Assembly: GCF_963921235.1 (NCBI RefSeq)
Contig: NC_086097.1
Location: forward strand, 7,626,001 to 7,690,000
Reading direction: 5' to 3'
DNA length: 64,000 nt
Origin: Mobula hypostoma
Lineage: Eukaryota
Shown here one piece after another: positions 706 to 60,689 of the stretch. Each line of letters begins with the position of its first letter. Position 1 is the stretch's first letter. Under the pieces are notes generated by a model, which saw only the letters and a program-made list of their open reading frames with translations, was not told the DNA's origin and made no database searches. A program made the position numbers and the translations under genes.

Positions 706-1314
706 AGGCAACCTTTCAATATACGCTTTACAAAGAAAAAGAGGAAATAAAGTGTCCTGAAAGACGATAAAAGATTCATTTGTCCTCAACATGTGTGTCC
801 GAGGAAGATTTGCTTCAGCCGCAGGGCTACATTAGTTTTTCTCATTGCTCTATTTGCTGCCCTCTCCCTCTGCTTTGTAATTGTTTATTAGCAATCTCAC
901 AGACTGTGCCCAGAGTACATTGCAACAGCCCATTTAACTGTCTCATCTTTCCAAAGGCAGCTAATTTCTGCTACTGATGCTGGAAAGTAGTGTAATGGAG
1001 AGTCTGTATTACTTGCAGAAATGTAACACTCTGTAATCTGAGCATGCAGGCTGTTTGATAGATAACCGTAGAGATGGTAACCTGTAGAACATGCTTAAAA
1101 GTGGAAAACTCAATCTTTCTATGTTTACTAATGTCAGCTCAGTTCACAGAGTTGGCGAAGGCAATGATAGTTTTTACAGGAACTCAATTTTGTTGAAAGC
1201 CCAATTTGAGATTGAGACCAAATGACAATAGGGCTAAAAGACATAGGAACAAAATTAGGCCATTTGTTCTGTTCTGCCACTCCACCATGGCTAACTTATC
1301 AACCCTCTAAACCC

Positions 1315-1554
1315 GCAAACATCAGGAATTCTGCAGATGCTGGAAATTCAAGCAACACACATAAAAGTTGCTGGTGAACGCAGCAGGCAAGGCAGCATCT
1401 CTAGGAAGAGGCGCAGTCGACGTTTCAGGCTGAGACCCTTCGTCAGGACCCTGACGTGAGTCCTGACGGAGGGTCTCGGCCTGAAACGTCGACTGCACCT
1501 CTTCCTAGAGATGCTGCCTTGCCTGCTGCGTTCACCAGCAACTTTTATGTGTGT
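1315..1554. mobile_element. Palindromic PLE pLTR mini-insertion with hammerhead motifs on both strands
   Basis: 94-bp inverted arms 1355-1448 and 1461-1554 (3 mismatches). 40-nt tail on the left arm only. 14-bp TSD AACCCTCTAAACCC at 1301-1314 and 1555-1568. Homologous to the 3' end of the PLE at 12778-12876. Confidence 0.92.
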
Positions 1555-1828
1555 AACCCTCTAAACCCATCCTCTTTCCATCTTCCTGTAACCTTTGATG
1601 CCCTGACTAATGAAGAACTAATCATCCTCCTCTTTAAATATATCCAATGGCTTGGCCTTCATTGCCATCTGTTGCAATGAATTTCCTAGATTTACCACCC
1701 TCTGGCTAAAGAAATTTCTCTTCACCTCTGTTCTAGATGGACGTTCCTCTATTCTGAGGCTGTGCTGTCTGGTTCTAGACTCTCCCACTACAGGAAATAT
1801 CCTCTCCACATCCACTCTGTCTAGGCCT

Positions 1829-2047
1829 CTGGACCCCACCATGCCACTGGATCTGGGAGGGGATGTCAAGAGGGTGGGTCTGGACCTGTGCAACCCCCTA
1901 CTCACCTAAAATCCATTCACACACACGCTGTTCCTTTCTGAGGAGTGGGGTATCCTACCTATCAAACCCCACTAACTGACTGAAAGGAACCAACATCATC
2001 CTATTGGATGGATAGCCAGAAGAAGAAGAAGAAGAAGATGATGATGA
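1829..2047 (+). mobile_element. Short non-LTR (RTE-type) non-autonomous insertion with (GAA)n(GAT)n tail
   Basis: TSD TCTAGGCCT at 1820-1828 and 2048-2056; microsatellite tail ~2018-2047; splits a CR1. Confidence 0.7.
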
Positions 2048-4482: not shown

Positions 4483-5220
4483 AAAAGGTACTTCTCAGCA
4501 TCGTGGAGATAACTAGATATCTACAAAAATCTTTTAGAGGTCAGAAGTTAGGAAGTTGCTGCTTTATTTTGTCAGGAAGCTCTAACAGGGGTGCATTTTT
4601 CATAAGGAATGACCTCCCTTTTTGTGGTTTCTGCATTTGATAATATTTAGTGATTGATCTGAAGATTAAGAACATTCTGAATACTTGTTTCAAGTGGATG
4701 TAAGCACTTATGTTCTACATCTATCAAAATACAGGCACAATACAAGCTTTTATATGATGTTTAAATGTTTGTAAAGGCAATTAGAAAGAGCCTGATGATT
4801 CATAGACAATTTATCAGCTAGCAATCTAAAGAAACCATTAATGTAACAAACACTGTCTCAGAATCCAATACTTAAATGAAATGTGCATTAGAAGCTATAG
4901 TATTTCTCAGATATAATTTTCACAGTCATATAAAATGTAGGCAGTTCAGGCTACAATATCAATAAAAAGTCCATTACTCTCAGCTCAGAATATTACTTTA
5001 AAACTGTATTATTTGATCCATTTAGTAATCAAATAATGAGAGCTTAGCTACACACTATCAGATGAGTTGGACTTGCACTATTCCTATTTTGATTTCTTCA
5101 TGTAACGTTTTCACTAATGCATTCAATACTTAATATTTTATCATCACAGTATATTACTCATAAAGATTGCTGGAACATTAAAACATTTCAGCAGCAATTT
5201 AGGAATAAATTTTAAGATCA

Positions 5221-5610
5221 TAAGACCATGAGTAAAATTAGGTCATTTGGCCCATCGAGTCTGCTTCACCATTTCGTCATGTCTGATCTATTTTCCCTCT
5301 CATCCCCCATCTCCTGCCTTCTCCCTATATCTATTCATTCCTTGACTAATCAAGAATCTATCAAGTTCTGCCTTAAATGTACCAAACGGCTTGGCCTCCA
5401 GAGCCACCCATGGCAATAAATTCCACATATTCACCACTTTCTGGCTAAAGAAATTCCTCCTCATCTCCACTCTAAATGGACATCCCTGTATTCTGAGGAT
5501 GTGTCCTCTGGTCTTAGACTCCCACGCCACAGGAAACATTTTCTGCACATCCACTCTATCGAGGCCTTTCAACATTCGATAGGTTTCAATGAGATCCCCC
5601 CTCATTCTTC
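5221..5610 (-). mobile_element. CR1 LINE 3' end
   Basis: ORF 5300-5722(-): RRMRGDLIETYRMLKGLDRVD...RNFFSQKVVNMWN. Confidence 0.9.
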
Positions 5611-6082: not shown

Positions 6083-6968
6083 ATTAAGTGCTTCAATAAA
6101 TTGCAATCAACCTTTTCAGTGTAAAGAAGGGAATTTGCTCCAAGTTTGTTGATCCACCTTGCACTAACCCTGGTTCTCTTTGGACAAGACCAGTAACCCA
6201 GCATAGTCAGATCCCTGACGTGATAGAGAGATGGCAGCTGCTGGGAGTCTTGAGCAACACACACAAAATGCTGGAGGAACTCAGCAGATCAAGTAGCATC
6301 TATGGGCTGAAACATCTGTAGATGCTACCTGATCTGCTGAGCTCCTCCTGCATTTTGTATGTGTTAGTCAGATCCCAAATAAGCAAATCAAAGCTCAGAA
6401 GAAAAGCTCTTCTTTGGGATGCCATGGTAGTGTAGTAGTCAGAGTGATGCTATTACAGCTCGTGGCATTAGAGTTCAATCCTGGCATCGTTGTACAGTGT
6501 TTGTATGTTCTCCCTGTGAAACGTGTAGGCTTTCACCAGGTGTTCTGGTTTCCTCCCACAGTCCAAAGATGTATCATTTAGTAGGCTATTTTATCTCAAT
6601 TGTCCTATATAAGGCTAGTGTTAAATAGGTGAGTTGCTGAGTGGTGTGGCTGCTCCACGATGTATCGCTAAATAAAGCAAAATTAAGTGCTCCAATAAAT
6701 TGCACTAAACCTTTTCAAAGTAATAAAGGGGTTTCTCTCAAAGCCTGTTGATCCACCTTCCATTAACCAACACTAAACTGGCTCTCTTTGTACAAGAACA
6801 GAAACCCAGCGTAGTCAGATCCCTGATATGCAAGAGTGAGAACAAATGCTGGGAATATCAGGCAACACATCCAAAATGCTGGAGGAACTCAGCAGGTCAG
6901 GCAGCTTCTGTGAAGGAATTAAGCGATGTTTCACTCCAAGATCTCCATGAGTGTGTTAGTCAGATCCC
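6083..6968. repeat. Old tandem duplication (6083-6376 and 6682-6968), each copy carrying the same PLE mini-insertion
   Basis: Both copies start ATTAAGTGCTYCAATAAATTGCA. Both have TSD TAGTCAGATCCC (6204/6365 and 6812/6957) around a pLTR remnant. Confidence 0.85.
6417..6675 (+). mobile_element. HE1-like tRNA-derived V-SINE
   Basis: A/B-box-like head, V-domain-like GGTGTTCTGGTTTCCTCCCACAGTCCAAAG, AAAT-rich tail. Confidence 0.8.
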
Positions 6969-7073
6969 TGTAGACTACTGTGAAATTGTTACAGATGGTG
7001 CAATAGAAACCTTATCATTGGTGTAACATCTCTTTTTCTGGTGATCTCAGTTATATTGACAGTAAAGATTCTG

Positions 7074-9530: not shown

Positions 9531-9826
9531 ATAATAAACACAAGAAAGTCTACAATGCTGGAAATCCAGGGCAACACACACAAAATGCTGGAGGAACTCA
9601 GCAGGTCAGGCAACATCCATGGAATGAATAAACAGTGGACAATTTGGGCTGAGACCCTTCTTCAGGACTGGAAAGAAAGGGGGAATATGCTTGAACTGAA
9701 GAAAGGTCTTGGCCTGAAACTGTTTATTCATTTCCACAGATGCTGCCTGACCTGTTGTGTTCCTCCAGTATTTTGCGTGTGTTGCTCCAGATTTCCAGCA
9801 TCTGTAGAATCTCTCATGTTTATGAT
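9531..9826. mobile_element. Fully symmetric (two-tailed) palindromic PLE pLTR element
   Basis: Left arm ~9531-9670 is the reverse complement of right arm ~9696-9826, including the tail on both ends. Degraded hammerhead CTGAAGAA..GAAAC at ~9696-9720. Confidence 0.85.
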
Positions 9827-10057: not shown

Positions 10058-10453
10058 ACCTGATAGTCCATTTGGGTAGCCTCCAATCTGATGGCATGAA
10101 TATAGATATTTCCTTCCAGTAAAAAAAAAACTTCCCCTCCCTTTTCTTCTGTTCCCCACTCTGGTCTCATGTGCCTATCACCTCCGCCTAGTGCCCCTTC
10201 TCCAATGGTCCACTCTCCTCTCCTATCAGATTCCTTTCTTCTCCAGCCCTTGACCTTTCCCCCACACCTGGCTTCTCCTATCACCTTCCAGCTACCCTTC
10301 TTTCCCTTCCCCCCCCACCCACCTTTTTATTCTGGCATCCTTCCCCTTCCTTCTCAGTCCGGAAGAAGAGTCTCGGCCCGAAACAATGACCACGTACTCA
10401 TTTCAGTAGATGCTGCTTTACCTGATGCATTCCTCCAGTATTTTGGGTGTGTT
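10058..10453 (+). mobile_element. PLE 3' fragment (GIY-YIG C-terminus and pLTR)
   Basis: LGSLQSDGMNID, a pyrimidine-rich UTR and a degraded hammerhead at ~10355-10390. Confidence 0.85.
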
Positions 10454-10957
10454 GATTTCCATATCAATAAGGAAATAGCTGCGCTGTATAAGTGCCATTC
10501 ACAAAGGCACTTTTTTCCTGTTTTTTTCTCACAGGCACTAAATGATGGTTTTGGCAGCAAGACTCACAGCCCCTGAATAAATTAATAACAAATTGTCGAG
10601 TTTAACAGGAATAAATACAAACTAATACAGATGAGACAAGACGAAAATATCTTCCAGGAACAGCTTGAGAAATATGGAACCGTCATAGAATTGGAATTGT
10701 TTTATTATTGTCACATTGGGGGTGGCACTGGAGCACAGTGGTTAGCACAATGCTTTACAATACCAGCGACGCAGGTTCAATTCCCACCACTGCCGGCAAG
10801 GAACTTGTATGCTGTCCTCATGACCACATGGATTTCCTTCGGGTGCTCTGGTTTCCTCCTACAGTCCAAAAATGTACCGGTTGATAGGTTGATTTGTCGT
10901 TGTAAATTGTCCTGTGATTAGGCTAGGGTTCTGTCCAGGTAGACCCATTGTTTCAGC

Positions 10958-12477
10958 TTGCTCCTGCCCCAGCGAACTCATTTCTGCATACCTCGACAAT
11001 GTTTTATAGCCCCCCCCGCCCCCGTTCAATTCCTTCCCACCTATGTTCGTGACACTTCTCACGCTCTGAATTTTTTGAATGATTTTAGGTTCCCTGGGCC
11101 CCACCACTTTATTTTCACAATGGATGTCCATTCCCTATATACCTCCATTCCCCACCAGGAAGGTCTCAAAACTCTCAGCTTCTTTTTGGATTCCAGTCCT
11201 AATCAGTTCCCCTCTACCACCACTCTCCTCCGTCTACTGGAATTAGTCCTTACACTCAATAATTTCTCCTTTGGCTCCTCCCACTTCCTCCAAACTAAAG
11301 GTGTAGCAATGGGCACCTGTATGGGTCCTAGCTATGCCTGTCTTTTTGTTGGCTTTGTGGAACAATCTATGTTCCGTACCTATTCTGGTGTCAGTCCCCC
11401 ACTTTTCCTTCGCTACATCGACGACTGTATTGGTGCTGCTTCCTGCACGCATGCTGAGCTCGTTGACTTTATTAACTTTGCCTCCAACTTTCACCCTGCC
11501 CTCAAATTTACCTGGTCCATTTCCGACACCTCCCTCCCCATTCTTGATCTTTCTGTCTCTGTCTCTGGAGACAGTTTATCTACTGGTGTCTACTATAATC
11601 CTACAGACTCTCACAGCTACCTGGACTATTCCTCTTCCCAAACTATCTCTTGCAAAAATGCCATTCACTTCTCAAAATTCCTCCGTCTCTGCTGCATCTG
11701 CTCTCGGGATGAGGCTTTTCATTCCAGGATGAAGGAGATGTCTTCCTTTTTTAAAGATAGTGGCTTCCCTTCCTCCACCATCAACCCTGCTCTCAAACGC
11801 ATCTCTCCCATTTCATGCACATCTGCTCTCACCCCATCCTTCTGCCACCCCACTAGGAATAGGGTTCCCCTGGTCCTCACCTACCACCCCACCAGCCTCC
11901 GAGTACAACGTATTATTCTCCATAACTTCCACCACCTCCAACGGGATCCCACCAAGCACATCTTTCCCTCCCCCCCACCTCTGCTTTCTGAAGGGATCGC
12001 TCCCTACGCGACTCCCTTGTCCATTCGTCCCCCCCATCCCTTCCCACCGATCTCCCTTCCGGCACTTATCCTTGTAAGCGGAACAAGTGCTACACATGCT
12101 CTTACACTTCCTCCCTTACCACCATTCAGGGCCCCAGACAATCCTTCCAGGGGAGGCGACACTTCACCTGTGAGTCAGTTGGGGTGATAAACTGCGTCTG
12201 GTGCTCCCGATGTGGCCTGCTATATATTGGCGAGACCCGACTCAGACTAGGAGACCATTTCACTGAACACCTACACTCTGTCCGCCAGAGAAACCAGGAT
12301 CTCCCAGTGGCCACACATTTCAATTCCACTTCCCATTCCCATTCTGATATGTCCATCCATGGCCTCCTGTACTGTCAAGATGAAGCCACACTCAGGCTGG
12401 AGGAACAACACCTTATATTCCGTCTGGGTAGCCTCCAACCTGATGGCATGAACATTGACTTCTCTATCTTCCATTAA
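10958..12477 (+). pseudogene. PLE reverse transcriptase / GIY-YIG endonuclease ORF, lightly disrupted
   Basis: RT motifs FTMDVHSLYTSIP, KGVAMGTCMGPSYA and RYIDD. Frameshift in the C-run ~11966-11980 and TGA at 11989-11991. Then linker CKRNKCYTC (12073-12099) and CSRCGLLYIGETRLRLGDHFTEH. Confidence 0.93.
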
Positions 12478-12777
12478 TGCCCCTCCTCCCCTTTTTACCC
12501 CATCCATTATTTATTTATTATTATTTTTTCCCCCTTTCTTTCTTCTCTTTTTTCTCCTTCTGTCCCTCTCACTATATCTTCCTCTGGCACTCCTCTCTCC
12601 CTTTCTTTCCCCCTAGGCCTCCCGTCCCATAATCCTCTCCCTTCTCCAGCCTTGTATCCCTTTTGCCAATCAACTTTCTAGCTCTTGGCTCCATTCCTCC
12701 CCCTCCTGTCTTCTCCTATCATTTCAGATCTCCCCCCGCCCTCCACTTTCAAATCTCTTACTACTTCTTCTTTCAGT

Positions 12778-12815
12778 TAGTCCTGACGAAGGGTCTTGGC
12801 CCGAAACGTCAACTG
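12778..12815 (+). ncRNA. Minimal type I hammerhead ribozyme motif in the PLE pLTR
   Basis: Stem I TAGTC, core CTGACGA(A), stem II GGGT-CTTG-GCCC, GAAA, palindromic ACGT helix III, GTC cleavage triplet (cut after 12810), stem I' AACTG (GACTG in the copies at 1491 and 60182). Confidence 0.85.
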
Positions 12816-13549
12816 TACCCCTTCCTATAGATGCTGCCTGGCTTGCTGCGTTCCACCAGCATTTTGTGTGTGTTGATTAAATTGAGTATTGATGGACAGC
12901 AGGGCTCAAAGGGCCGGAAAGGCCTGTTCTGCGCTGTATCTCAATAAATAAACAAATAAATAGAATTTTCCAATATCTGTTTGATGAAGTATATTTGACT
13001 GGAGAAAAAACAAATATATCCATTTGCAGGGACATTTGCGATACTTTGGGAAATGCGCTCTGACGAAAATGCTAACTGATTGAAATTATTACAGTAACTG
13101 CTTTTCCAAGAATTTAAAACATGCAATGCCTCCAGATAGAATTGTTTTTTTGCTACACCTGGGGTGATTTTAGAAGTTTCTGTCATTCTTGTTCATACCT
13201 GCTGTTTTCAAGCTGATATCTACGCCTGAACAAAGAGGAATATTGGACTGAGTCATCACTTTAGTCTCCAGAGTATCACCCCAGGTTCAGATCCCTGACT
13301 GTCATCTCAGTCATGTTGATGATACCTGCCATGACGTGAATGCCTGCTCATTGCTTACCAGACACACTTCTGCAAATCCATAAAACAGTTGCAAAATTGG
13401 CTGCATCACCGTCTGGTTTTGGGGGGTGTGTGGGTGGGATGCTAATGACAATATCGAAATCAGCTGCAGCTGTAAACTTAGACAGCTCCATCATGGGCAC
13501 TAGCCTCCATAGTATCCATCATTCAGAATCCCTTCATCCAGGTCATGTC

Positions 13550-16157: not shown

Positions 16158-16495
16158 AATTTTTAAGTGATATTTCAGTAATCTTGTGTGCATTTCACTG
16201 AAGGTAAACACTGAGTTAGACCCGCTTTCCCAGACTCACCTTTCTTTCTTTGAATTAGTTTAATGTTTTGAAGCTACAAAACATAACATCCACAAATTTC
16301 TCTTAAATGTTGAAATCAAACCTGGGTCCACCACTTTCACTGTTAGCTTGTTCCACACTCTCACCACCCTCTGAGTTAATAAGTTCCCTCTCATGTTCCT
16401 TTAAACATTTCTCCTTTCAAGCTTAACTCATGATCTATAGTTTTGTAATTTTTTAAAATATTTTTACATAGGCATTAAGAACATATGCCTTAAAA

Positions 16496-16872
16496 TGTAT
16501 AAAATCCTAAAAGGATTGGACAGGCTAGATGCAGGAAGATTGTTCCCGATGTTGGGGAAGTCCAGAACGAGGAGTCACAGTTTGAGGATAAAGGGGAAGC
16601 CTTTTAGGACCGAGATTAGGAAAAACTTCTTCACACAGAGAGTGGTGAATCTGTGGAATTCTCTGCCACAGGAAACAGTTGAGGCCAGTTCATTGGCTAT
16701 ATTTAAGAGGGGGTTAGATATGGCCCTTGTGGCTAAAGAGATCAGGGGGTATGGAGGGAAGGCTGGTTCAGGGTTCTGAGTTGGATGATCAGCCATGATC
16801 GTACTGAATGGCGGTGCAGGCTCGAAGGGCCGAATGGCCTACTCCTGCACCTATTTTCTATGTTTCTATGTT
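16496..16872 (+). mobile_element. Young CR1 3' end, same subfamily as 37920-39094
   Basis: YKILKGLDRLDAGRLFPMLGKSRTR...; (CTATGTTT)n tail; few mismatches to 38716-39094. Confidence 0.95.
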
Positions 16873-16919
16873 TTAACCAAAGAGCTCATGTTTATTTGCA
16901 AGTCAGCAGATTTAAAAGC

Positions 16920-17467: not shown

Positions 17468-17755
17468 GCTGAAAGCTCTTGCACTTTGAGTCTTCAGGCT
17501 ATTAGTGCTGAATGCTTGCTCCATATTTGTCTGTGACAGTTTTATATTGGTGCCAAGCAGGTACCCAACATGACTTGCTCGTCCAAGGGATAACGGTATA
17601 AATACAATTATGGATCCAGAGTGAAACTGTTTACAGATATACTGCAACATTATTTTGTCAATCCTAGCAAGAATGCTTTTATAGACAATGTAATAACAGT
17701 GAAACATTGAAAAATCAAAACAAGAAATCTTTTTTGCCATTAAAATTAGAATCAG

Positions 17756-17889
17756 GACTGCCAAAGGGTCACAGCCCGAAATATCAACTGTAATTTCCAT
17801 AGATGCTGCCTGACCTGCTGAATTTCTCCAGCATTTTGTGTATGTTGCTTGGATTTCCAGCATTTGCAAATTTTCTCTTGTTTGTGATT
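17756..17889 (+). mobile_element. Solo PLE pLTR (degraded hammerhead to tail)
   Basis: CTGCCAAAGGGTCACAGCCCGAAAT...GATGCTGCCTGACCTGCTG...TTTTCTCTTGTTTGTG. Confidence 0.85.
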
Positions 17890-22549: not shown

Positions 22550-22853
22550 CTTATTCTCACCTATTTATTACTTCCTGCTGGGTCCTCTTCTTTTCTCCTA
22601 TACGATTCTCTTCTTCAGCACTTGACCTTTCCCACCCACCTGGCTTCACCAATCACTTTCCTACTCGCCTCTTTTCCCTCCCCCCACCTTTTTATTCTGG
22701 TGTCCTCCCTCTTCCTTCTCAGTCCATGAAGAATGGTCTTGGCCAGTAATGTAGACAGTTTACTCTTTTCCACAGATGTTATCTGACCTGCTGAGTTCCT
22801 CCAGCATTTTGTGTGTGTTACTTTAAACTTCCAGCATTTGCAGATTTTGTGTT
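22550..22853 (+). mobile_element. PLE 3'UTR and pLTR fragment
   Basis: Pyrimidine-rich UTR like 10140-10355, then pLTR with tail. Confidence 0.8.
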
Positions 22854-25043: not shown

Positions 25044-25218
25044 AATCACAAACAAGAGAAAATCTGCAGATGCTCGAAATCCAAGAAACAAAACAAAATG
25101 CTGGAGGAACTCAGACCAGGCAGCATCTATGGAAAAAAAGTACAGTTGATGCTTCGGTCCAAGAAGCTTTTGGGTGTGCCTGGCCTACTGAGTTCCTCCA
25201 GTGTTTTGTGCGTGTTGC
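25044..25218. mobile_element. Palindromic PLE mini-insertion inside an RTE-type SINE
   Basis: Tailed minus arm plus tail-less plus arm; degenerate TSD with core TGTAGAAA at 25030 and 25222. Confidence 0.8.
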
Positions 25219-25396
25219 TTTTGTAGAAATGCTTGCCAAGAACAATTATGGTCATGGAAAGACCATAATCACCCATGCCAAATGACATGGCACAATGAAT
25301 ATCTATTATTGTAGATCTTCAGTATTTTATTTGCTTTGTGAAAACTACATTTGTTGCCTTGAATTTCACGTCAAGACATTGAGCAGGTTTTGTGAG

Positions 25397-27270: not shown

Positions 27271-27281
27271 GTCTTATTGTC

Positions 27282-28580
27282 CATGGGAAAGAGTACAGTC
27301 GACATTTTGGGCCGAGACCCTTCAGCAGGACTGAGGAAAACAGATGAGGAGTAGAGTTAAAAGGTGGGGGTGCAGAGAGAGAAACACAAGGTTATAGGTT
27401 AACCAGAGAGGGGGTAGTGTGAAGTAAAGAGCTGGGTAGTTGATTAGTGAAAGACATGGGGCTGGAGAAGGAAGAATCTAATAGCCATAGAAGAAAAGCA
27501 GGCAAGGAGATAAGGTGAGAGGAAAAATAGGATGGGGAATGGTGAACAAGGGGAGGGAGGTTGGGGCCTTTTATCGGAAGTTTGAGAAATCGATGTTCAT
27601 GCTATCAGGTTGGAGGCTACCCAGATGGAATATAAAATGTTGTTCCTCTAACCTGAGTGTAGACAGTAGATGAGGCCATGGATTGACGTATTGGAATGGG
27701 AACGGGAAGTGGAATTACAATGGGTGGCCACTGGGAGATCCCGATCCTTCTGGCAGAGTGAGCGTAGGTGTTAGGTGAAACGATCTCCCAATCTACGTCA
27801 GGGTCTCATTGATGTACAGGAGGCCACACCGGGAGCACTGGACACATTGCATGACCCCAACAGTCTCACAAGTGAAGTGTCACCTCACCTGGAAGGATTG
27901 TTTGGGGCCCTGAATGGTAGTGAGGGAGGGGGTGTAGGGGCATGTGTAGCACATGTTCCGATTGCAAGGGTAAGTAATTCCAAGCCTTTGTGTATATCTA
28001 AGGCAGAGGTTGATAGATTTTTGATTGGTCAGGGCATAAAGGGATATGGGGTGAGGAAGGGTAGTGGAAGGCAGGAGATTGGGGCTGAAGGGAAAAGTGG
28101 ATTGGCAAAGATGAAATGGCTGCAGGCCTAATGGCCTAATTCTGCTCCTACATCTTATGGTCTTAAGATGCCAGAATAAAAATTTGCGGGAGAGGATGGT
28201 AGTTAAAAGGTGATAGGTGAAGTCAGGTTGGTAGGAAAGGTCAAGGGCTGATGAAGGAGGAATCTGACAGAGGAGGAGAGTGGACCAAAGTGGAAAGGGA
28301 AGGAAGAGACCTAGGGGAAAGTGATAGGCAGGTGAGAAGGCGTTAAAAGTCAGAGGCAGGAATGGAGGAAGGGTGGAGGGAGGGTAATTCCTCCCCCCCC
28401 CCCAGAAAAAGGAGTCGATATTCACGCCATCAGGTTGGAAGGAACCCAGCTGGAATACAAGGTGTTGCTCCTCCAGCTGGAGATGTGGCACATCTTGGAA
28501 CAAGAGGAGGTCATGGACCAGCATATTGGAATGGGAATTGGAATCAAACTGTTTGGCCATTGGGATGTTCTGGACAAACA
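27282..28580 (-). mobile_element. Two PLE 3' fragments (GIY-YIG to pLTR) separated by a CR1 3' end (~27980-28165, +)
   Basis: LEEQHLVFQLGSFQPDGVNID and CNRNMCYTC in ORF 27880-28581(-); hammerhead-like antisense motif at ~27295-27332. Confidence 0.85.
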
Positions 28581-29156
28581 ATGTGCACTAGACAATAAAT
28601 TGTCTAATTTGTGTAAAAGGCAGTTGGACAGGTATACAAATGGCAAAAGTTTAGATGGTTACGGGCCAAATGTGAAAAAAATGTTCCTTGTATCACTTGT
28701 GGAAGCCACCATGATGTCTTTGGCCATGAGAAAATAAGGGAACAAGAGAGCCACCTTTGCTAAAAAGATGATTAATCTATTATTCTTTCTCAGATGCTGT
28801 CCAAGCTGTAGATTTCTCAGTGATTTTTTTTATATTTAAGGCGACCAATTGCTTAGTTGAAGCCCAAGGCTGGTATTATCCTGCAATCTCGTTAAAGGTA
28901 GATGCAGGTGAGTCACTGGATAAAAAGGAACTTGCAGGCATGTTAAATAGGTAGCTTTTCTCTTGTTATTGACACTCGAGAGCAAAACGCACGTGGTGCT
29001 AGAATATCTGTACAAAGTCCAGGGAAGGCAGTCAGTAGACTTTACATGTTAAAAATTGCAAGTGGGGAAAATAACAGGACTTCAGAGAAGTCTCTAGTAC
29101 CTGATAGTTTTGAGAACTTTAAAAAGGAGCAAATGAGAAAACTGAAAATGTATTAC

Positions 29157-31544: not shown

Positions 31545-32350
31545 CTTACTGAGATACAGCACAGAGCAGGGCCGCTTCATGCCACACCACCCAGGAACCC
31601 ATAAATTTAATGCTAGCCTAATCATGGGAAAATTTACAATGATCAACTAACCTTCCAACCGGTACCACTTTGGACTGTGGGAGGAAACTGGAGCACTGGG
31701 AGGAAACCCACGTGGTCATGAGGAGAATGTACAAACTCCTTAATGCAAGACCACAAGACAGAAGCAGAATTAGGCCATTCAGCCCATCATGTCGACTCTT
31801 ATTTCATCATGGCTGATCCCAGAATCCATTCAACCCCATACACCTGTCCTCTCACCATATCCCTTGATGTCTCAACCAATCAGGAATCCATCAACTTCCT
31901 CCTTAAGTATACCCACGGTCTTGGCCTCAGCCACAGTCAGTGACAGAGCATTCCACAAACTCACCACTTTTTAGCTAAAAAATTCCTTCTAACTTCTGTT
32001 CTAAAAGGACAACCCTCAATTTTGGCTGTGCCTTCTAGTTCTGAATACCCCCACCAGAGGAAACATCCTCTCCATATCCACCCTATCTAGTCATTTCAAC
32101 ATTTGGTAGGTTTCAATGAGATCCCCACGCATTCTTCTAAATTCCAGTGAGTGCAGCCCCAAAGCTGCTGGACGTTTCTCACCTGTTAACCCCTTTATAC
32201 TTGGAATCATCCTCGTGAACCTCCTCTGGACTCTCTCCAATGACAATACATCCTTTCTGAGACAAGGGGCCCAGAAAGACAGCAGCTGGAATTGAACCCA
32301 AGTCACTAGTACTGTTAAGCATTGTTCTAACCACCTCACTACTGTGCTGA
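31545..32350 (-). mobile_element. HE1-like SINE split by a CR1 3' end (~31745-32274, -)
   Basis: SINE V-domain at 31670-31740 and head at 32277-32350; CR1 LERVQRRFTRMIP...RRMRGDLIETY in between. Confidence 0.8.
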
Positions 32351-33855: not shown

Positions 33856-34883
33856 GTGAAGCTGGTCCAGGAGTCCGTCGAGTGCTGGGTAACAGCATCT
33901 CACGTACCCAAGTCTCCAGTGTAACCCGCCTGATGGTAGTAACAAGGGAGGGAGATGGGTCAAGCACAGGCAGATGGGATGGGCTCAGGTGATGGATCCT
34001 GGCTAACATGGAGATTTGAACTGAACACCAATTCATTCTCTTCCCTCATCCCAAACGCCTTTACTACAGCTTTTGTAGTACTACATTTATTGATGTTCCA
34101 TTACTTTACATTATTGTTCTGTAAACCATGAAGAACAATGGTTTGAGCCAACACCCATGAAGTAAACTCAGCAACCTTAAAGACTGATGAGGTGGCACCT
34201 TGTGTAACAGAGCAGATCCAGGAATATACTATGGAAACTGCTCAAGTGGGCAGGGAAATGTGAGCGAGGCCCAGGTATCTTCTGTGGTAAAAGATAATAC
34301 TTTTTCCTCAGTTTCACAGCTTTATCGTCAGAGAAGAGAAATTTGCTGTGGAAATGGAGTCAGTTATCAGAATGAAGACTCATAAAAGATTAATACAATT
34401 CCTTCATCAGGAATGGAAGAAAGGTGATAGATGTCAGATGATTCAAAGATGGCTTATTAATTTTCTTGGCTTAGTGTCAACATCTGGAGATCAATCCTGG
34501 GCCCAATATATCAATGCATTTACAAAGAAGGCACAGCAGTGACTATATTTCATTCGGAGTTTGAGCAGATTTGCTATGTGACCAATGACACTGGCAAATT
34601 ACTACAGAAGTACTGTGGAAAGCTTTTAACTAGTTGCATCATTTTCTGGTATGGTGGGGGAAGTGCCACTGCACAGGATCGTATAAAGCTGCAAAAAGTT
34701 TATGCTCAGTCAGCTCCTTCATGAGCACAAGGCTTCACAACACCCACATCATTTTCAAGGAGTGATGCCCCAAAAAGATGGCATCCATTCACAAGGCTAT
34801 GTTCTCTTCTCATTGCTACCACCAAGGGGGAGATGCAGAAGCCTAAAGTCACAGACTCAACAATTCAGGAACACTTTCCTTCA

Positions 34884-37370
34884 TAAGACCATAAGACATA
34901 GGAGCAGAATTAGGCCATCTGGCCAACTGAGTCTGCTCCACCATTCAATCATGGCTGATCTTTTTATTTATCCCCCTCAACCCCAGTTCCTATCCCTCTC
35001 CCCGTAACTTTTGATACCATGTCTAATCAAGCGCCTATCAATCTCTGCCTTAAATACACCCAACAACCTGGCCTCCACAGCTGCATGTGGTAACAAATTC
35101 ACCACCCTTTAGCTGAAGAAAATTCTTTGCCGCTGTTTTAAATGGGTGCCCCTCTATTCTGAGGCTGTTCTCTCTTGTCCTAGACTATCCCACCATGGGA
35201 AATATCCTTTCAAATTCTACTGTCTAGGTCTTTCAAAATTTGAAAGATTTCAATGAGATCCCCCGCTCATCTTTCTGAATTTCAGTGGGTACAGACCCAG
35301 AGCCATCAAACATTCCTCGTGTGATAACCCTTTCATTCCTGGAATCATCCTTGTGAACCTCCTCTGGACCCTCTTGAATACTGGCACATCTTTTCTAAGA
35401 TGAGGGGTCCAAAACTGTTCACAATACTCAAGGTGAGGCCTCACGAATGCCTTATAAAGCCTTAGCATCATATCCTTGCTCTTGTATTCTAGACTTCTTG
35501 AAATGACTGCTAACCACCAACTCAACCTGCAAGTTAACCTTCAAGTCCCTCTGCATCTCAGATTTTTGGACTTTCTTCCCGTTTAGAAAATTGTCTGCAC
35601 ATTTATTTCTACTACCGAAGTGCATGACCATGCATTTTCCAACATTGTATTTCATTTGCCACTTTCTTGCCCATTCTCCTAATCTGTCTAAGTTCTTTTG
35701 CTTCGACAAAGTCATCTACTCCATCATCCAAATCATTTATATACAGCATAAAAAGAAGTGGTCCCAACACCAAACCCTGTGGAACACCACTAGTCACTGA
35801 CAGCCAACCAGGAAAGGATCCTTTTATTCCCACTCGCTGCCTCCTACCAATAGCCAATGCTCTAACTATGTTAGTGACTTTCCTGTAATACCACAGGCTC
35901 TTACATTGGTAGGTAGTCTCATGTGTGGCATCTTGTCAAAGGCCTTCTGAAAGTCCAAATATACAATATCCACAGCATCCCCTTTTATCTATCGTATTTG
36001 TTATCTCCTCAAAAATTTTCAAGCAGGATTTTCCCTGAAGGAAACCATGCTGACTTTGTCCTATCTTGTCCCGTGTCATCAAGTACTCCATCACCTCATC
36101 CTTAACAATTGACTATCATCTTCCCAAACACTGAGGTCAGGCAAACTGGTCTATAATTTCCTTTCTGCTGCCTTCTTCCTTTCTTAAAGAATGCAGTGAC
36201 ATTTGCAATTTTCTAGTCCTCTGGCACCATGCCAGAGTCCAATGATTTTTGAAAGATCATTTCTAAAGCCATCACAATCTCCAGTGCCACCTCTTTCAGA
36301 ACCCTAGGGTGTAGTTCATCTGGTCCATGTGACATATCTACCTTTAGGTCTTTCAGCTTTTTGAGTACCTTCTCTTGTAATAGTAACTGCACCCACTTCT
36401 CTTCCTTCACATACTACAACATCAGGTACACTGCTAGTGTCTTCCACAGTGAAGACTGATGCAAAATACTTATTTAGTTCATCAGCCAGCTCCTTGTCCC
36501 CATCATTATTTCTCCTGCCATATTTTCTAGTGGTCCTATATCCATTCATTTCTCTTAGTTATAACATACTTGAAAAAACTTTTACTATCCACTTTGATAT
36601 TATTTGCTAGCTTCGATTCATATTTCATCTTTTCCCTTCTAATGCTTTTTTTAGTTGCTCTCTGTAGGTTTTTAAAAACTTCCCAATCCTCTATCAACCC
36701 ACTAATTTTTGTTTTGTTCTATGCCCTTTCTTTTGCTTTTACAATGGCTTTGACTTCCCTTGTCAGCCATGGTTATACCATTTTACCATTTGAATATTTC
36801 TTCATATTTGGAATAAATGTGTCCTGCACCTTCCTCATTTTTTCCAGAAATGTGTCCAGCTCCTTCCAATTTATTTTGGCCAGCTCCTCTCTGATACCAC
36901 TGCAATTTCCCTTACTTTGTTGAAATACTGCTACATCAGACTTTACTTTCTCCCTATCAAATATCAAGTTTAAATGAACCGTATTGTGATCATTGTCCCC
37001 TCAGGGTTCTTTTACCTTAAGCTCCCTAATCACCTTCATCCATTACATAACACCCAATTCAATATAGCTGATCCCCTAGTAGGCTCAATGACAAACTGTT
37101 CTAAAAAGCTATCTCTTAGGCATTCAACAAACTCACTCTCTTAAGATCCATTACCAACCTGACTTTCCCCCAGTCGGCCTGCATGTCAAAATATTCCTCG
37201 ACTCCCATAACATTGCCCTTTTGATTCGCCTTTTCTATTTCCTGCTGTAATCTGTGGTCTCTCTCCCAGCCACTGGAAGGCCTGTACACAACTGCCATCA
37301 ACGTCTTTTTACCCTCACATTTCTTTAACTCAACCCACAACGGTTCAACTTCTTCCGATCCAATTTTCTT
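34884..37370 (-). mobile_element. Long degraded CR1 LINE (endonuclease C-terminus, RT, 3'UTR)
   Basis: [66 protein letters not shown]. Confidence 0.93.
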
Positions 37371-37689: not shown

Positions 37690-39139
37690 TTATTTAGCAA
37701 TACAGTAGTGAGTGCACCCCTCCAGCCTTTTGAGCCAGACTGTCCCAGCGACCCCGACTAACTCTAGCGCAACCACAGGACAATGTACACTGACCAATTA
37801 ATCTTTGCACTGTGGGAGGAAACCTGAGCACCTGGGGAAAACCCAGGTGTTCCACAGGGAGGATGTAGAGAGACTCCTGACAGAACTGAACTCTGAACTC
37901 CAGAACACCCCCCAAACTGACAAGGTCCCACACAGGAGATTAGTGTGCAAACTTAAAGCACACGGTATTGGGGGTAAGATATTGATGTGGATGGAGAATT
38001 GGTTAGCAGACAGGAGGCAAAGAGTGGGAATAAACGGGACCTTTTCAGAATGGCAGGTGGTGACTAGTGGGGTACCGCAAGGCTCAGTGCTGGGACCCCA
38101 GTTGTTTACAATATATATTAATGACTTGGATGAGGGAATTAAATGCAGCATCTCCAAGTTTGCAGATGACACGAAGCTGGGTGGCAGTGTTAGCTGTGAG
38201 GAGGATGCTAAGAGGATGCAGGGTGACTTGGATAGGTTAGGTGAGTGGGCAAATTCATGGCAGATGCAATTTAATGTGGATAAATGTGAAGTTATCCACT
38301 TTGGTGGCAAAAATAGGAAAACAGATTATTATCTGAATGGTGGCCGATTAGGAAAAGGGGAGGTGCAACGAGATCTGGGTGTCATTATATACCAGTCATT
38401 GGAAGTGGGCATGCAGGTACAGCAGGCGGTGAAAAAGGCGAATGGTATGCTGGCATTTATAGCGAGAGGATTCGAGTACAGGAGCAGGGAGGTACTACTG
38501 CAGTTGTACAAGGCCTTGGTGAGACCACACCTGGAGTATTGTGTGCAGTTTTGGTCCCCTAATCTGAGGAAAGACATCCTTGCCATAGAGGGAGTACAAA
38601 GAAGGTTCACCAGATTGATTCCTGGGATGGCAGGACTTTCATATGAAGAAAGACTGGATGAACTGGGCTTGTACTCGTTGGAATTTAGAAGATTGAGGGG
38701 GGATCTGATTGAAACGTATAAAATCCTAAAGGGATTGGACAGACTAGATGCAGGAAGATTGTTCCCGATGTTGGGGAAGTCCAGAACAAGGGGTCACAGT
38801 TTGAGGATAAAGGGGAAGCCGTTTAGGACCGAGATTAGGAAAAACTTCTTCACACAGAGAGTGGTGAATCTGTGGAATTCTCTGCCACAGGAAACAGTTG
38901 AGGCCAGTTCATTGGCTATATTTAAGAGGGGGTTAGATATGGCCCTTGTGGCTACGGGGATCAGGGGGTATGGAGGGAAGGCTGGGGCGGGGTTCTGAGT
39001 TGGAAGATCAGCCATGATCATAATAAATGGCGGTGCAGGCTCGAAGGGCCGAATGGCCTACTCCTGCACCTATTTTCTATGTTTCTATGTTTCTAAACTG
39101 TATTAGCTTCGCACTAACTGCTACTCCACAAGGGTGCCC
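37690..39139 (-). mobile_element. HE1-like V-SINE split by a young CR1
   Basis: Body 37690-37919 and head 39095-39139; joined across TSD AAACTG. Confidence 0.8.
37920..39094 (+). mobile_element. Young 5'-truncated CR1 LINE with an uninterrupted RT C-terminal ORF (to 38998)
   Basis: SGVPQGSVLGP, YINDL, KFADDTK and VRPHLEYCVQFWSP with no stops over ~359 codons; (CTATGTTT)n tail; TSD AAACTG at 37914-37919 and 39095-39100. Confidence 0.97.
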
Positions 39140-53473: not shown

Positions 53474-53570
53474 CAACACACACAAAATGCTGGAGAAACT
53501 CAGTAGGTCAAGCAGCATCCATCGAAATGAGGAAACAGCCAACTTTTCGGGCCAAGACCATTCTTCAGGA
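53474..53570 (-). mobile_element. Tail-less PLE pLTR fragment
   Basis: CAACACACACAAAATGCTGG...TTTCGGGCCAAGACCATTCTTCAGGA. Confidence 0.8.
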
Positions 53571-53852
53571 AAATGCCCTACCGTCAGGACTTCAAATCCT
53601 GATTTCTGGACTTTTCTCCCCCTGAACTTTCAACCTATCTTCTTAAAATTTCCTTTCCTTACAAAGCTTTTAATCAAGTCCATCTCCCCAGTTCTTCCTT
53701 TGCTTGGCAAACTCTATCTTAGTGAGTTTTTCAGACTAGAAGCCCAACATGTTTTGTTCCAATAAGCCTCAAGAATTTTGCTCCCCTTACATGTCTTGAA
53801 TCTTGAATGTAATTTTTAATGTTAGTTTTGTCATCTATATCTATATCATCTA

Positions 53853-56891: not shown

Positions 56892-58062
56892 CCAGTATTT
56901 AAGTAGACGCACCTTTGGCAGCAATTTCAGCCTTGAGTCTGTGTGGATAATCTAATCTAATCTGATCTAAACATCTTGCATATCTGTATGTTGCAATTTT
57001 TCCCCATACTTCTTTACAAAACTGCTCAAGATCTGTCAGGTTGCACGGGGATTGTGAGTGAAGAGTGTTTTTCAATTCCAGCTACAAATTCTCAATTAGA
57101 TTGGGGTCTGGACTCTGACTTGGCCTCTGAAGAACATTAACTTTGTTGTTTTTAAGTTATTCCTGTGTAGCTTTGGTTTTATGCTTGGGGTCATTGCCTT
57201 GCTGGAAAACAAATCTTCTCTGAATTTGCAGTTCTCTTACAGACTCAATCAAGTTTTCCTCCAGGATTTCCCCGCATTTTGCTGCATTCATTTTACCCTG
57301 TACCTTCAGAAGCTTTCCAGGGCTTGCTGGAGTGAAGCATCCCCTCTGCATGATGCAGCTGCCACTAGGCTTCATGGTAAGGATGGTGTAGTTTTGATAA
57401 TGTGCAGTGTTTGGCTTATGATAAACATTGTGTTTACTCTGTGGCAAAGAAGCTCAATTTTGGTTTCATTAGACCATAGAATCTTCTTCCAGCTGACTTC
57501 AGAGTCTCCCACATGCCTTCTGGCATACTCTAGCTGAGATTTCATCCGAGTTTTTTGCAACAGTGACTTTCTCTTTGCTACTCTCACATAAAGCTGTGAC
57601 TGGTGGTACCCTGGCAACAATTGTTGTATGTACAGTCTCTCCCATCTCAGGTGCTGAAGCTTGTGTCCTGCTGAAGGGTTTCAGCTCAAACTGTGGACTG
57701 TACTTTTGTCCATAGATGCTACCTGCCCTGCTGAGTTCCTCCAGCATTTTGTGTGTGTTGCTCGGATTTCTAGTACTGTATCTGCAGATTTTTTCTTGTT
57801 TGACGCTTGTAACTCCTGAGTTGTCATGGGTCTCTTGGTGGCATCCCTCACTAGTCCCCTTCTTGCATGGGCACTCAGTTTTTGAGGACAGCCTGCTCTA
57901 GGCAGATTTAAGGTTGTCCTATTTTCTTTCCATTTCTTGATTGACTTAAATGCACTCCAAGGAATATTTTTGTGACTTGGAAATTTTCTTGTATCCATCT
58001 CCTGACTTGTGCTTTTCAATAGTCTTTTCACGGAGTTGCTTGGAGCGTTCTTTTGTCTTCAT
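56892..58062 (-). pseudogene. Tc1 (DD34E) transposase, frameshifted and interrupted by a PLE pLTR
   Basis: MKTKERSKQLREK..KSGDGYKKISK; WKKILWSNETKIEL; FVFQQGNDPKHK; YPHRLKAEIAAKGAST. Confidence 0.9.
57665..57804 (+). mobile_element. Solo PLE pLTR inserted in the Tc1 transposase
   Basis: TSD GCTTGT at 57659-57664 and 57805-57810; starts at hammerhead stem I (GTC-CTG). Confidence 0.85.
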
Positions 58063-59999: not shown

Positions 60000-60689
60000 G
60001 GTTCCTTAAGGGGGTGGTAATGGGGATAAGCTCCCACTACATATTAAATGCTCCCAGTGATGTGCTTCTCAAGTAGCCTCTGACAAGCAAATCCTACTCC
60101 TGGCCTTCATGTGTGGCTTAGCAAACACAAAATAATCTGCAGATGCTGGGGCCCTGACGAAGGGTTCCGGCCCAAAACGTCGACTGATCCTTTCCACGGA
60201 TGCTGCCCGACCTGCTGAGTTCCTTCAGCGTGTTGTGATGTGTGGCTTAGCTACGAAGCCTGTCAGAACTGTTTCTACTGACAGGAGAAGGGGTAAAGGC
60301 GGGTTACTGGTGCCTTGAAACCAGTTGCTTTAGGGAGATAAGGTTCATCAGTCATGGTTGGCAGCTCATCTAGAAAAAGGAAGACTATGATCTCAAACCT
60401 CCACTTCTTTGTGGCTTTATCCATTCATGGGGAAGGCTTTGGGAGTAAATCCTGAGGAAAAATTTGGAGCTGGAGCTTCTAAGGCAGTCCTACATTGAGT
60501 ACAATGCTGACTTAGAACTCCTGCAACTCCACTGGTGATAAACTGTATCAATTTCCGCTGTTCCTTTGCCTTCATCAGCTGCCTGGAGAGGGGGAGCTTG
60601 CTTTCCATATCATTCTGACCAGACTTTCATATCATCTAGAGAACTAGAATGCAATATCCATGGTTGACCTCAACCAACTCAGGGCCTCA
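60000..60689 (+). mobile_element. Full-length non-coding RTE-type element (5' end GGTTCC), interrupted by a PLE mini-element
   Basis: Same ends as 25397-25966(-); no ORF; RTE 5'UTR-like GAAGACTATGATCTCAAACC motif. Confidence 0.8.
60123..60237. mobile_element. 115-bp minimal PLE insertion: inverted tail plus hammerhead segment
   Basis: 14-bp TSD ATGTGTGGCTTAGC at 60109-60122 and 60238-60251; CTGACGAAGGGTTCCGGCCCAAAACGTCGACTG. Confidence 0.9.

Follow-up and report, generated by a model that had tools for sequence, protein, structure and literature searches.

The 240-bp palindrome in this 64-kb window (the window being the whole stretch of DNA that was analysed) is a real and fairly young insertion of two back-to-back pieces of the terminal repeat (pLTR) of a Penelope-like element (PLE). 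We regard it as probably a dead-on-arrival, ORF-less insertion of a Neptune/Nematis-type PLE that was made by dual priming. The insert lies between two 14-bp target site duplications (TSDs) on the plus strand, at 1301..1314 and 1555..1568, which are identical at 14/14 positions, and this 14-mer occurs just twice within the 64-kb window (chance at fixed register 3e-9). From left to right it comprises a 40-nt tail (1315..1354, minus strand), a 95-nt arm that starts at hammerhead helix I and has its sense on the minus strand (1355..1449, placed by inverted-repeat and parent alignment), 10 nt, and a 95-nt inverted arm (1460-1554). The tail is present on the minus arm only, outside the inverted repeat, and occupies the interval between the two 3' ends of the family as delimited by copy 3' ends and contig loose ends. 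Aligned to the parent, the tail-less right arm, with its sense on the plus strand, extends 4 nt more (1456..1554), and 1456-1459 match the upstream letters of the parent at 3/4 positions; neither arm includes the other, the tail being confined to the left and the four upstream-like nucleotides to the right. The head-to-head junction is spanned by a 7-bp fold-back palindrome (1441..1456, no strand assigned) of the kind known from PMC3846280, and the arms differ at three positions, all of them transitions (1440/1469, 1431/1478 and 1412/1497). An earlier note on this DNA had reported the exact TSD, the insert size, the three mismatches and the joining of an inverted tail-less copy to a tailed one, all of which stand, together with an arm length of 94 bp that is corrected here to 95 nt.

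The insertion splits an old LINE fragment (1229..1830; 68-81% identity to other copies in the window), which we take to be CR1-like. Among 13 aligned LINE paralogues in the window, five cross the site (49395-49159, 5200-5567, 31742-32090, 34883-35231 and 56076-55939) with flanks overlapping by 12-14 nt and a single copy of the target, bearing out the earlier claim that the cassette is a true insertion; in the other eight the alignment falls short of the site on one or both sides. The exact TSD, the three arm differences and a contig over the left joint rule out an assembly artefact: a contig of run X1, which may be the window's own source, equals window 801-1342 with 0 differences and crosses the joint between left TSD and tail. 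The contigs from organisms B and C break off at 1261 and 1257, ahead of the insertion site. Divergence amounts to 1.6% per arm (95% range 0.3-4.6%), compared with 1.0% per lineage to organism B and 3.3% to organism C.

The arms derive from a family whose coding copy lies ~10 kb away, which confirms the PLE origin that had been proposed for them. This parent (10943..12883, plus strand) is 5'-truncated and frame-broken, and comprises an RT frame (10943-12187; Pfam RVT_1, E 4.8e-5, below the curated cut-off), a GIY-YIG-type endonuclease (EN) frame with a CX4CxxC linker (11992-12477; GVI..C..C..YIGET recognised by eye, no Pfam match), a pyrimidine-rich 3' region and, downstream of the EN frame, a tail-less pLTR with a hammerhead (12780-12883) that is 85-86% identical to the arms, identifying these as the element's terminal repeat. 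The order of RT and C-terminal GIY-YIG EN, the two cysteines between GIY and YIG, and the CX4CxxC linker, which falls within the CX2-5CxxC pattern upstream of GIY-YIG, make this family an EN+ PLE of Neptune/Nematis type by the motif definitions given in PMC8557442. The cassette itself carries the marks of an EN+ PLE insertion, namely a one-end tail in the range of 30-40 nt, an inverted 5'-truncated copy and a TSD. A protein search with the EN frame passed 13 of 260 candidates, the best from Mobula hypostoma and Hypanus sabinus at 74-88%; the same frame gave only two chance-level matches in the PDB. A metagenome scan and a viral contig scan each gave 0 matches. Three ray database proteins bearing host-gene names for a kinase domain, mucin-2 and a chitinase domain (P0003, P0004 and P0011) contain this PLE endonuclease region at 74-78%, and these regions are probably annotation artefacts or exonised repeats.

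The family is abundant and the subfamily of the cassette arms is young. A pLTR profile built from copies in the window (nhmmer) gave 22 matches in 64 kb, 21 of them at E 2e-8 or better; with the remaining match (E 0.65) dropped, 21 arms were counted, or ~1 arm per 3 kb. More than 100,000 X1 contigs fall on the 1.3-kb stretch that holds the arms and the flanking LINE together. Summed contig depth on 1505-1548, which is no copy number by the tool's own warning, drops ~1,700-fold from organism A to organism C as against 2.2-fold on the old LINE flank, and it is this disparity that marks the subfamily as young.

We propose that the palindrome was built at insertion and would not be a replicating unit. 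A GIY-YIG endonuclease would have nicked both strands 14 nt apart, a spacing read from the TSD, and each nicked 3' end would have primed reverse transcription on one and the same pLTR RNA, yielding a tailed cDNA of 135 nt from a distal start site and a tail-less one of 95-99 nt from a proximal site. Both cDNAs would have passed through an uncut hammerhead and halted at its 5' edge, one end would have folded back over 7 nt, and the two would have been joined head-to-head, with the hammerhead carried along as a passenger that is predicted to be silent. Consistent with two start sites, pLTR copies show two 3' end classes ~40 nt apart, and contig loose ends with unrelated clipped sequence occur at 1314/1317 and 1352. 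In vitro work on a lizard Poseidon element (PMC11167929) describes two internal RT start sites, one at each end of the tail, both target strands nicked and extended, and uncut RNA as the main template; if each nick primes one site, these two-site, two-strand findings predict the anatomy of the cassette. The letter at 1389/1520, common to both arms, is absent from 96-97% of the family depth, which argues for one template or for arms homogenised later, and since both arms span the cleavage site the template hammerhead was uncut under dual priming and self-priming alike.

Self-priming, in which one cDNA folds back at its 3' end and is copied into the second arm while the tail results from off-centre resolution, is the alternative that draws on the same junction, and we judge it unlikely. 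It was put forward in PMC3846280 from junction palindromes, the tail is ascribed to EN-mediated resolution in PMC8557442, and both the 7-bp fold-back and the near-identity of the arms, shared rare letters included, would follow from it. However, the fold-back ends after 7 nt and the right arm then resumes with upstream letters absent from the left arm, the short arm stops at the common tail-less end of the family, and a second insert in the window (60109-60251) is made of pieces without any overlap. Because neither arm of the cassette contains the other and the pieces at 60109-60251 share nothing, simple fold-back copying is insufficient. Dual priming has its own difficulties. The junction fold-back fits the self-priming model of PMC3846280 equally well, the right arm's 4-nt extension, with 3/4 letters matching, is weak, and the shared rare letters could stem from later conversion between the arms. 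The enzyme studied in vitro is from another clade (Poseidon) and a lizard; its authors describe the start site as AC-rich (PMC11167929), unlike the sense RNA of the cassette family, which is GU-rich at both ends. The eight paralogues that do not align to the site on both sides also count against dual priming, as do the less regular inserts elsewhere in the window.

Those other inserts show how variable the head-to-head class is. The insert at 60109-60251 (115 bp, 14-bp TSD) has an inverted piece that is tail only and another arm that is tail-less, and it is the best local evidence of two separate primings; a contig joint 1339->1463 has the same layout. Further inserts lie at 6204-6376 (149 bp, head-to-head, 12-bp TSD) and 6812-6970 (131 bp, 14-bp TSD, the inverted part a mere stub). 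Together, these TSD-flanked inserts of 115, 131 and 149 bp overturn the earlier suggestion that the 240-bp cassette is the smallest complete product of its mechanism. The inserts at 6204-6376 and 6812-6970 have a common 12-14 bp target inside a 77% local duplication, and they may represent one duplicated event or a preferred target. Two more head-to-head pairs have no clear TSD, one at 25045-25221 and an older one at 9536-9821, whose arms lie 27 nt apart and are both tailed; the missing TSDs and the double tail sit poorly with dual priming. Fold-backs at nine other 5' junctions were of 3-7 bp and none was convincing.

The centres of the head-to-head pairs in the window all differ, which bears on the improbable reading of the palindrome as a non-autonomous, MITE- or retrozyme-like unit copied whole by PLE machinery. 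Such a unit would account for the clean ends and TSD, pLTRs suffice in trans (PMC3846280), and some X1 head-to-head joints reach a depth of 30-185 compared with 16 on the unique flank, a depth that is no copy number and yet might mean copied junctions, to the detriment of dual priming. Against it, the centre of the cassette has no second copy in the window, each head-to-head pair having its own, and among the 15 contig joints listed the 10 that link left arm to right arm do so at varying points. The inverted repeat differs from TIRs in leaving the tail outside, and the locus has no tandem array of the kind that defines non-LTR retrozymes, namely same-strand tandem hammerheads (10.64898/2026.07.22.740005). 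Two named candidates were rejected on these grounds, a MITE or TIR DNA transposon because of the outlying tail and the centres that differ between copies, and a non-LTR retrozyme because there are no head-to-tail tandem hammerhead units at the locus.

Hairpins are prone to deletion, and in principle the cassette could have been left behind when a longer inverted PLE insertion subsequently lost its central part (ORF and upstream pLTR). PLE insertions of that long, inverted form with one TSD have been described (PMC3846280, PMC8557442). We nevertheless hold such a remnant to be quite improbable, as both breakpoints lie where many solo copies start and the junction fold-back is a signature of synthesis.

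Where the arms begin may carry information about the RNA from which they were copied. Measured from helix I, the starts of 21 arms fall within 4 nt in 8 cases, at +5 to +60 in 7, at -5 to -60 in 2 and further upstream in 4; the offsets were read by hand and the focal arm served as the seed of the search. A scan statistic gave a clustering p of 0.0007 over -60..+60 and 0.02 without the focal arms, and 0.009 and 0.11 with a narrower null, so that the clustering of arm starts at helix I is suggestive only. Contig loose ends at 1449 and 1459 and joints at 1448/1449 coincide with the end of the reference arm and were left out of this clustering. Directly before helix I, all four long copies (12766-12780, 10343-10357, 22708-22722 and 27331-27345) have a pyrimidine tract ending in CAG, and the young subfamily has two tandem AG. 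We take the pyrimidine tract with its CAG to be a candidate splice acceptor (3' splice site) or initiator. In Drosophila virilis Penelope, an intron end coincides with helix I (PMC4209133) and 46 bp separate the start site from a 75-bp intron behind it (PMC2377424). It is conceivable, and we offer it tentatively, that an abundant short pLTR RNA starts at the 5' edge of the hammerhead and that the ~95- and ~135-nt arms are run-off cDNAs, strong-stop-like, from two internal RT start sites. If this were true, the cassette would be the complete footprint of one PLE reaction, with both nicks priming on uncleaved RNA, and there would be thousands of these footprints in ray genomes, sufficient to settle twin-priming versus self-priming from sequence alone.

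As the earlier note had stated, the arms carry minimal type I hammerhead motifs, one on each strand. The minus-arm motif (1414..1449) has no helix III loop and, by the definition in PMC4209133, an intact CUGAnGA...GAAA-C-GUC core, with C3-A9, G12-A14, A15.1-U16.1 and H17 all in place; the plus-arm motif (1460..1495) has a single core change, A9 to G, again as reported. What had been overlooked in calling the minus arm intact is that position 11.1, a C in the parent copy at 12780, is U in both arms, so that G10.1-U11.1 replaces the G10.1-C11.1 pair, which PMC4209133 lists as highly conserved in minimal hammerheads. Exact-core matches in the window are found only at 1446 (minus) and 12783 (plus), on opposite strands, leaving no same-strand partner with which a dimer could fold, and Rfam at its gathering threshold gave 0 matches in the window. 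Single minimal motifs show no cleavage, and dimers only low cleavage, in PMC4209133.

Folding predictions indicate that the palindrome itself probably switches the hammerhead off. In single arms the modelled pairing probability of helix II is 0.30 (left) and 0.95 (right), but in whole or nascent cassette transcripts it falls to 0.0000, from which ribozyme and hairpin would be mutually exclusive, with the hairpin prevailing; helix I has a probability of 0.0 in all folds of this model, which cannot draw a dimer. A transcript in either direction contains one sense motif, made after its antisense arm. The expectation that read-through would give both a ribozyme and a hairpin is thus not supported for either strand, while its second half is supported by the model: if transcribed, the site would form a ~94-bp hairpin, with a predicted -206.9 kcal/mol for the plus-strand RNA (z -26; 0 of 200 shuffles equally stable). 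Any dsRNA effect of the cassette, including the role as an ADAR or Dicer substrate raised in the earlier note, would depend on such transcription. Run X17, presumably RNA, left most of the unique flank without cover, which speaks neither for nor against expression, and A>G and T>C tallies in contigs are family-wide and uninformative on editing. The intact minus-arm core and the very stable hairpin are also what one would expect if the host had retained the cassette for a function, as a ribozyme or as a dsRNA regulator. Such a role is highly improbable here, given a location inside an old repeat, arms decayed by three transitions of which one is in the core, the loss of helix II in context, and the cleavage behaviour of minimal motifs noted above.

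The cassette resembles several known systems without coinciding with any of them. EN+ PLE insertions described in PMC3846280 and PMC8557442 likewise have head-to-head pLTRs, a 30-40 nt tail at one end, a TSD and a junction palindrome, and inverted 5'-truncated pLTRs with a one-sided tail are already standard in these reports; their TSDs are of 8-10 bp rather than 14 bp, whereas the cassette has no ORF between its arms, measures 240 bp in all and belongs to a family of batoid hosts. The metazoan PLE hammerheads of PMC4209133 share with the arms the type I core, the lack of a helix III loop, the palindromic 15.2-16.2 and an extra nucleotide between 9 and 10.1. That report includes pairs of motifs in Schistosoma, one on each strand and ~100-700 bp from each other; in the cassette, by comparison, 10 nt separate the motifs, neither arm retains G10.1-C11.1, helix I has only 3-4 bp and helix II 4 bp. 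The Anolis carolinensis Poseidon reaction (PMC11167929) is a close parallel to the origin proposed here, with an RT start site at each limit of the tail, nicking and extension of both strands and an uncut template, but it concerns a clade other than the one indicated by the CX4CxxC linker (Neptune/Nematis type) in the window, and the accessible part of that report has no palindromic product. Non-LTR retrozymes (10.64898/2026.07.22.740005) are also non-coding, PLE-derived and provided with a type I hammerhead, but they are same-strand tandem repeats able to dimerise, in contrast to the inverted pair of the cassette. We found no description of ORF-less palindromic cassettes in elasmobranchs in the main text of openly readable papers; the supplements of PMC4209133 and of the retrozyme preprint may list the family.

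As a single locus the cassette is an ordinary transposon scar, and its value is that of a clean example of a very abundant class. Short inserts of this kind, lacking an ORF and framed by exact TSDs, bear on how PLE head-to-head repeats with a one-sided tail arise: they preserve the two priming sites together with the two stop points, and they show the hammerhead uncut in the template. At the density of arms in this window, such cassettes may also supply ray transcripts with a sizeable amount of hairpin RNA.

Several smaller features of the window touch on the same families. A solo tailed arm at 57655-57810 starts exactly at helix I and has a flanking 10-bp repeat with one mismatch. Just upstream of two other solo copies lie short pieces of the hammerhead 5' end, a direct duplicate at 53570-53600 (~53580-53590) and an inverted 7-mer at 17751-17757, which are possible aborted template jumps. 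The minus strand at 27280-28587 holds more decayed PLE 3' portions with EN-frame remnants and a pLTR (27280-27331) shortened on its 3' side. Finally, an open RT frame of 398 aa on the plus strand (37802-38998; Pfam RVT_1, E 2.6e-17) belongs to a LINE related to the host fragment of the cassette, and a 3' piece at 16490-16873 is 96% identical to this LINE.
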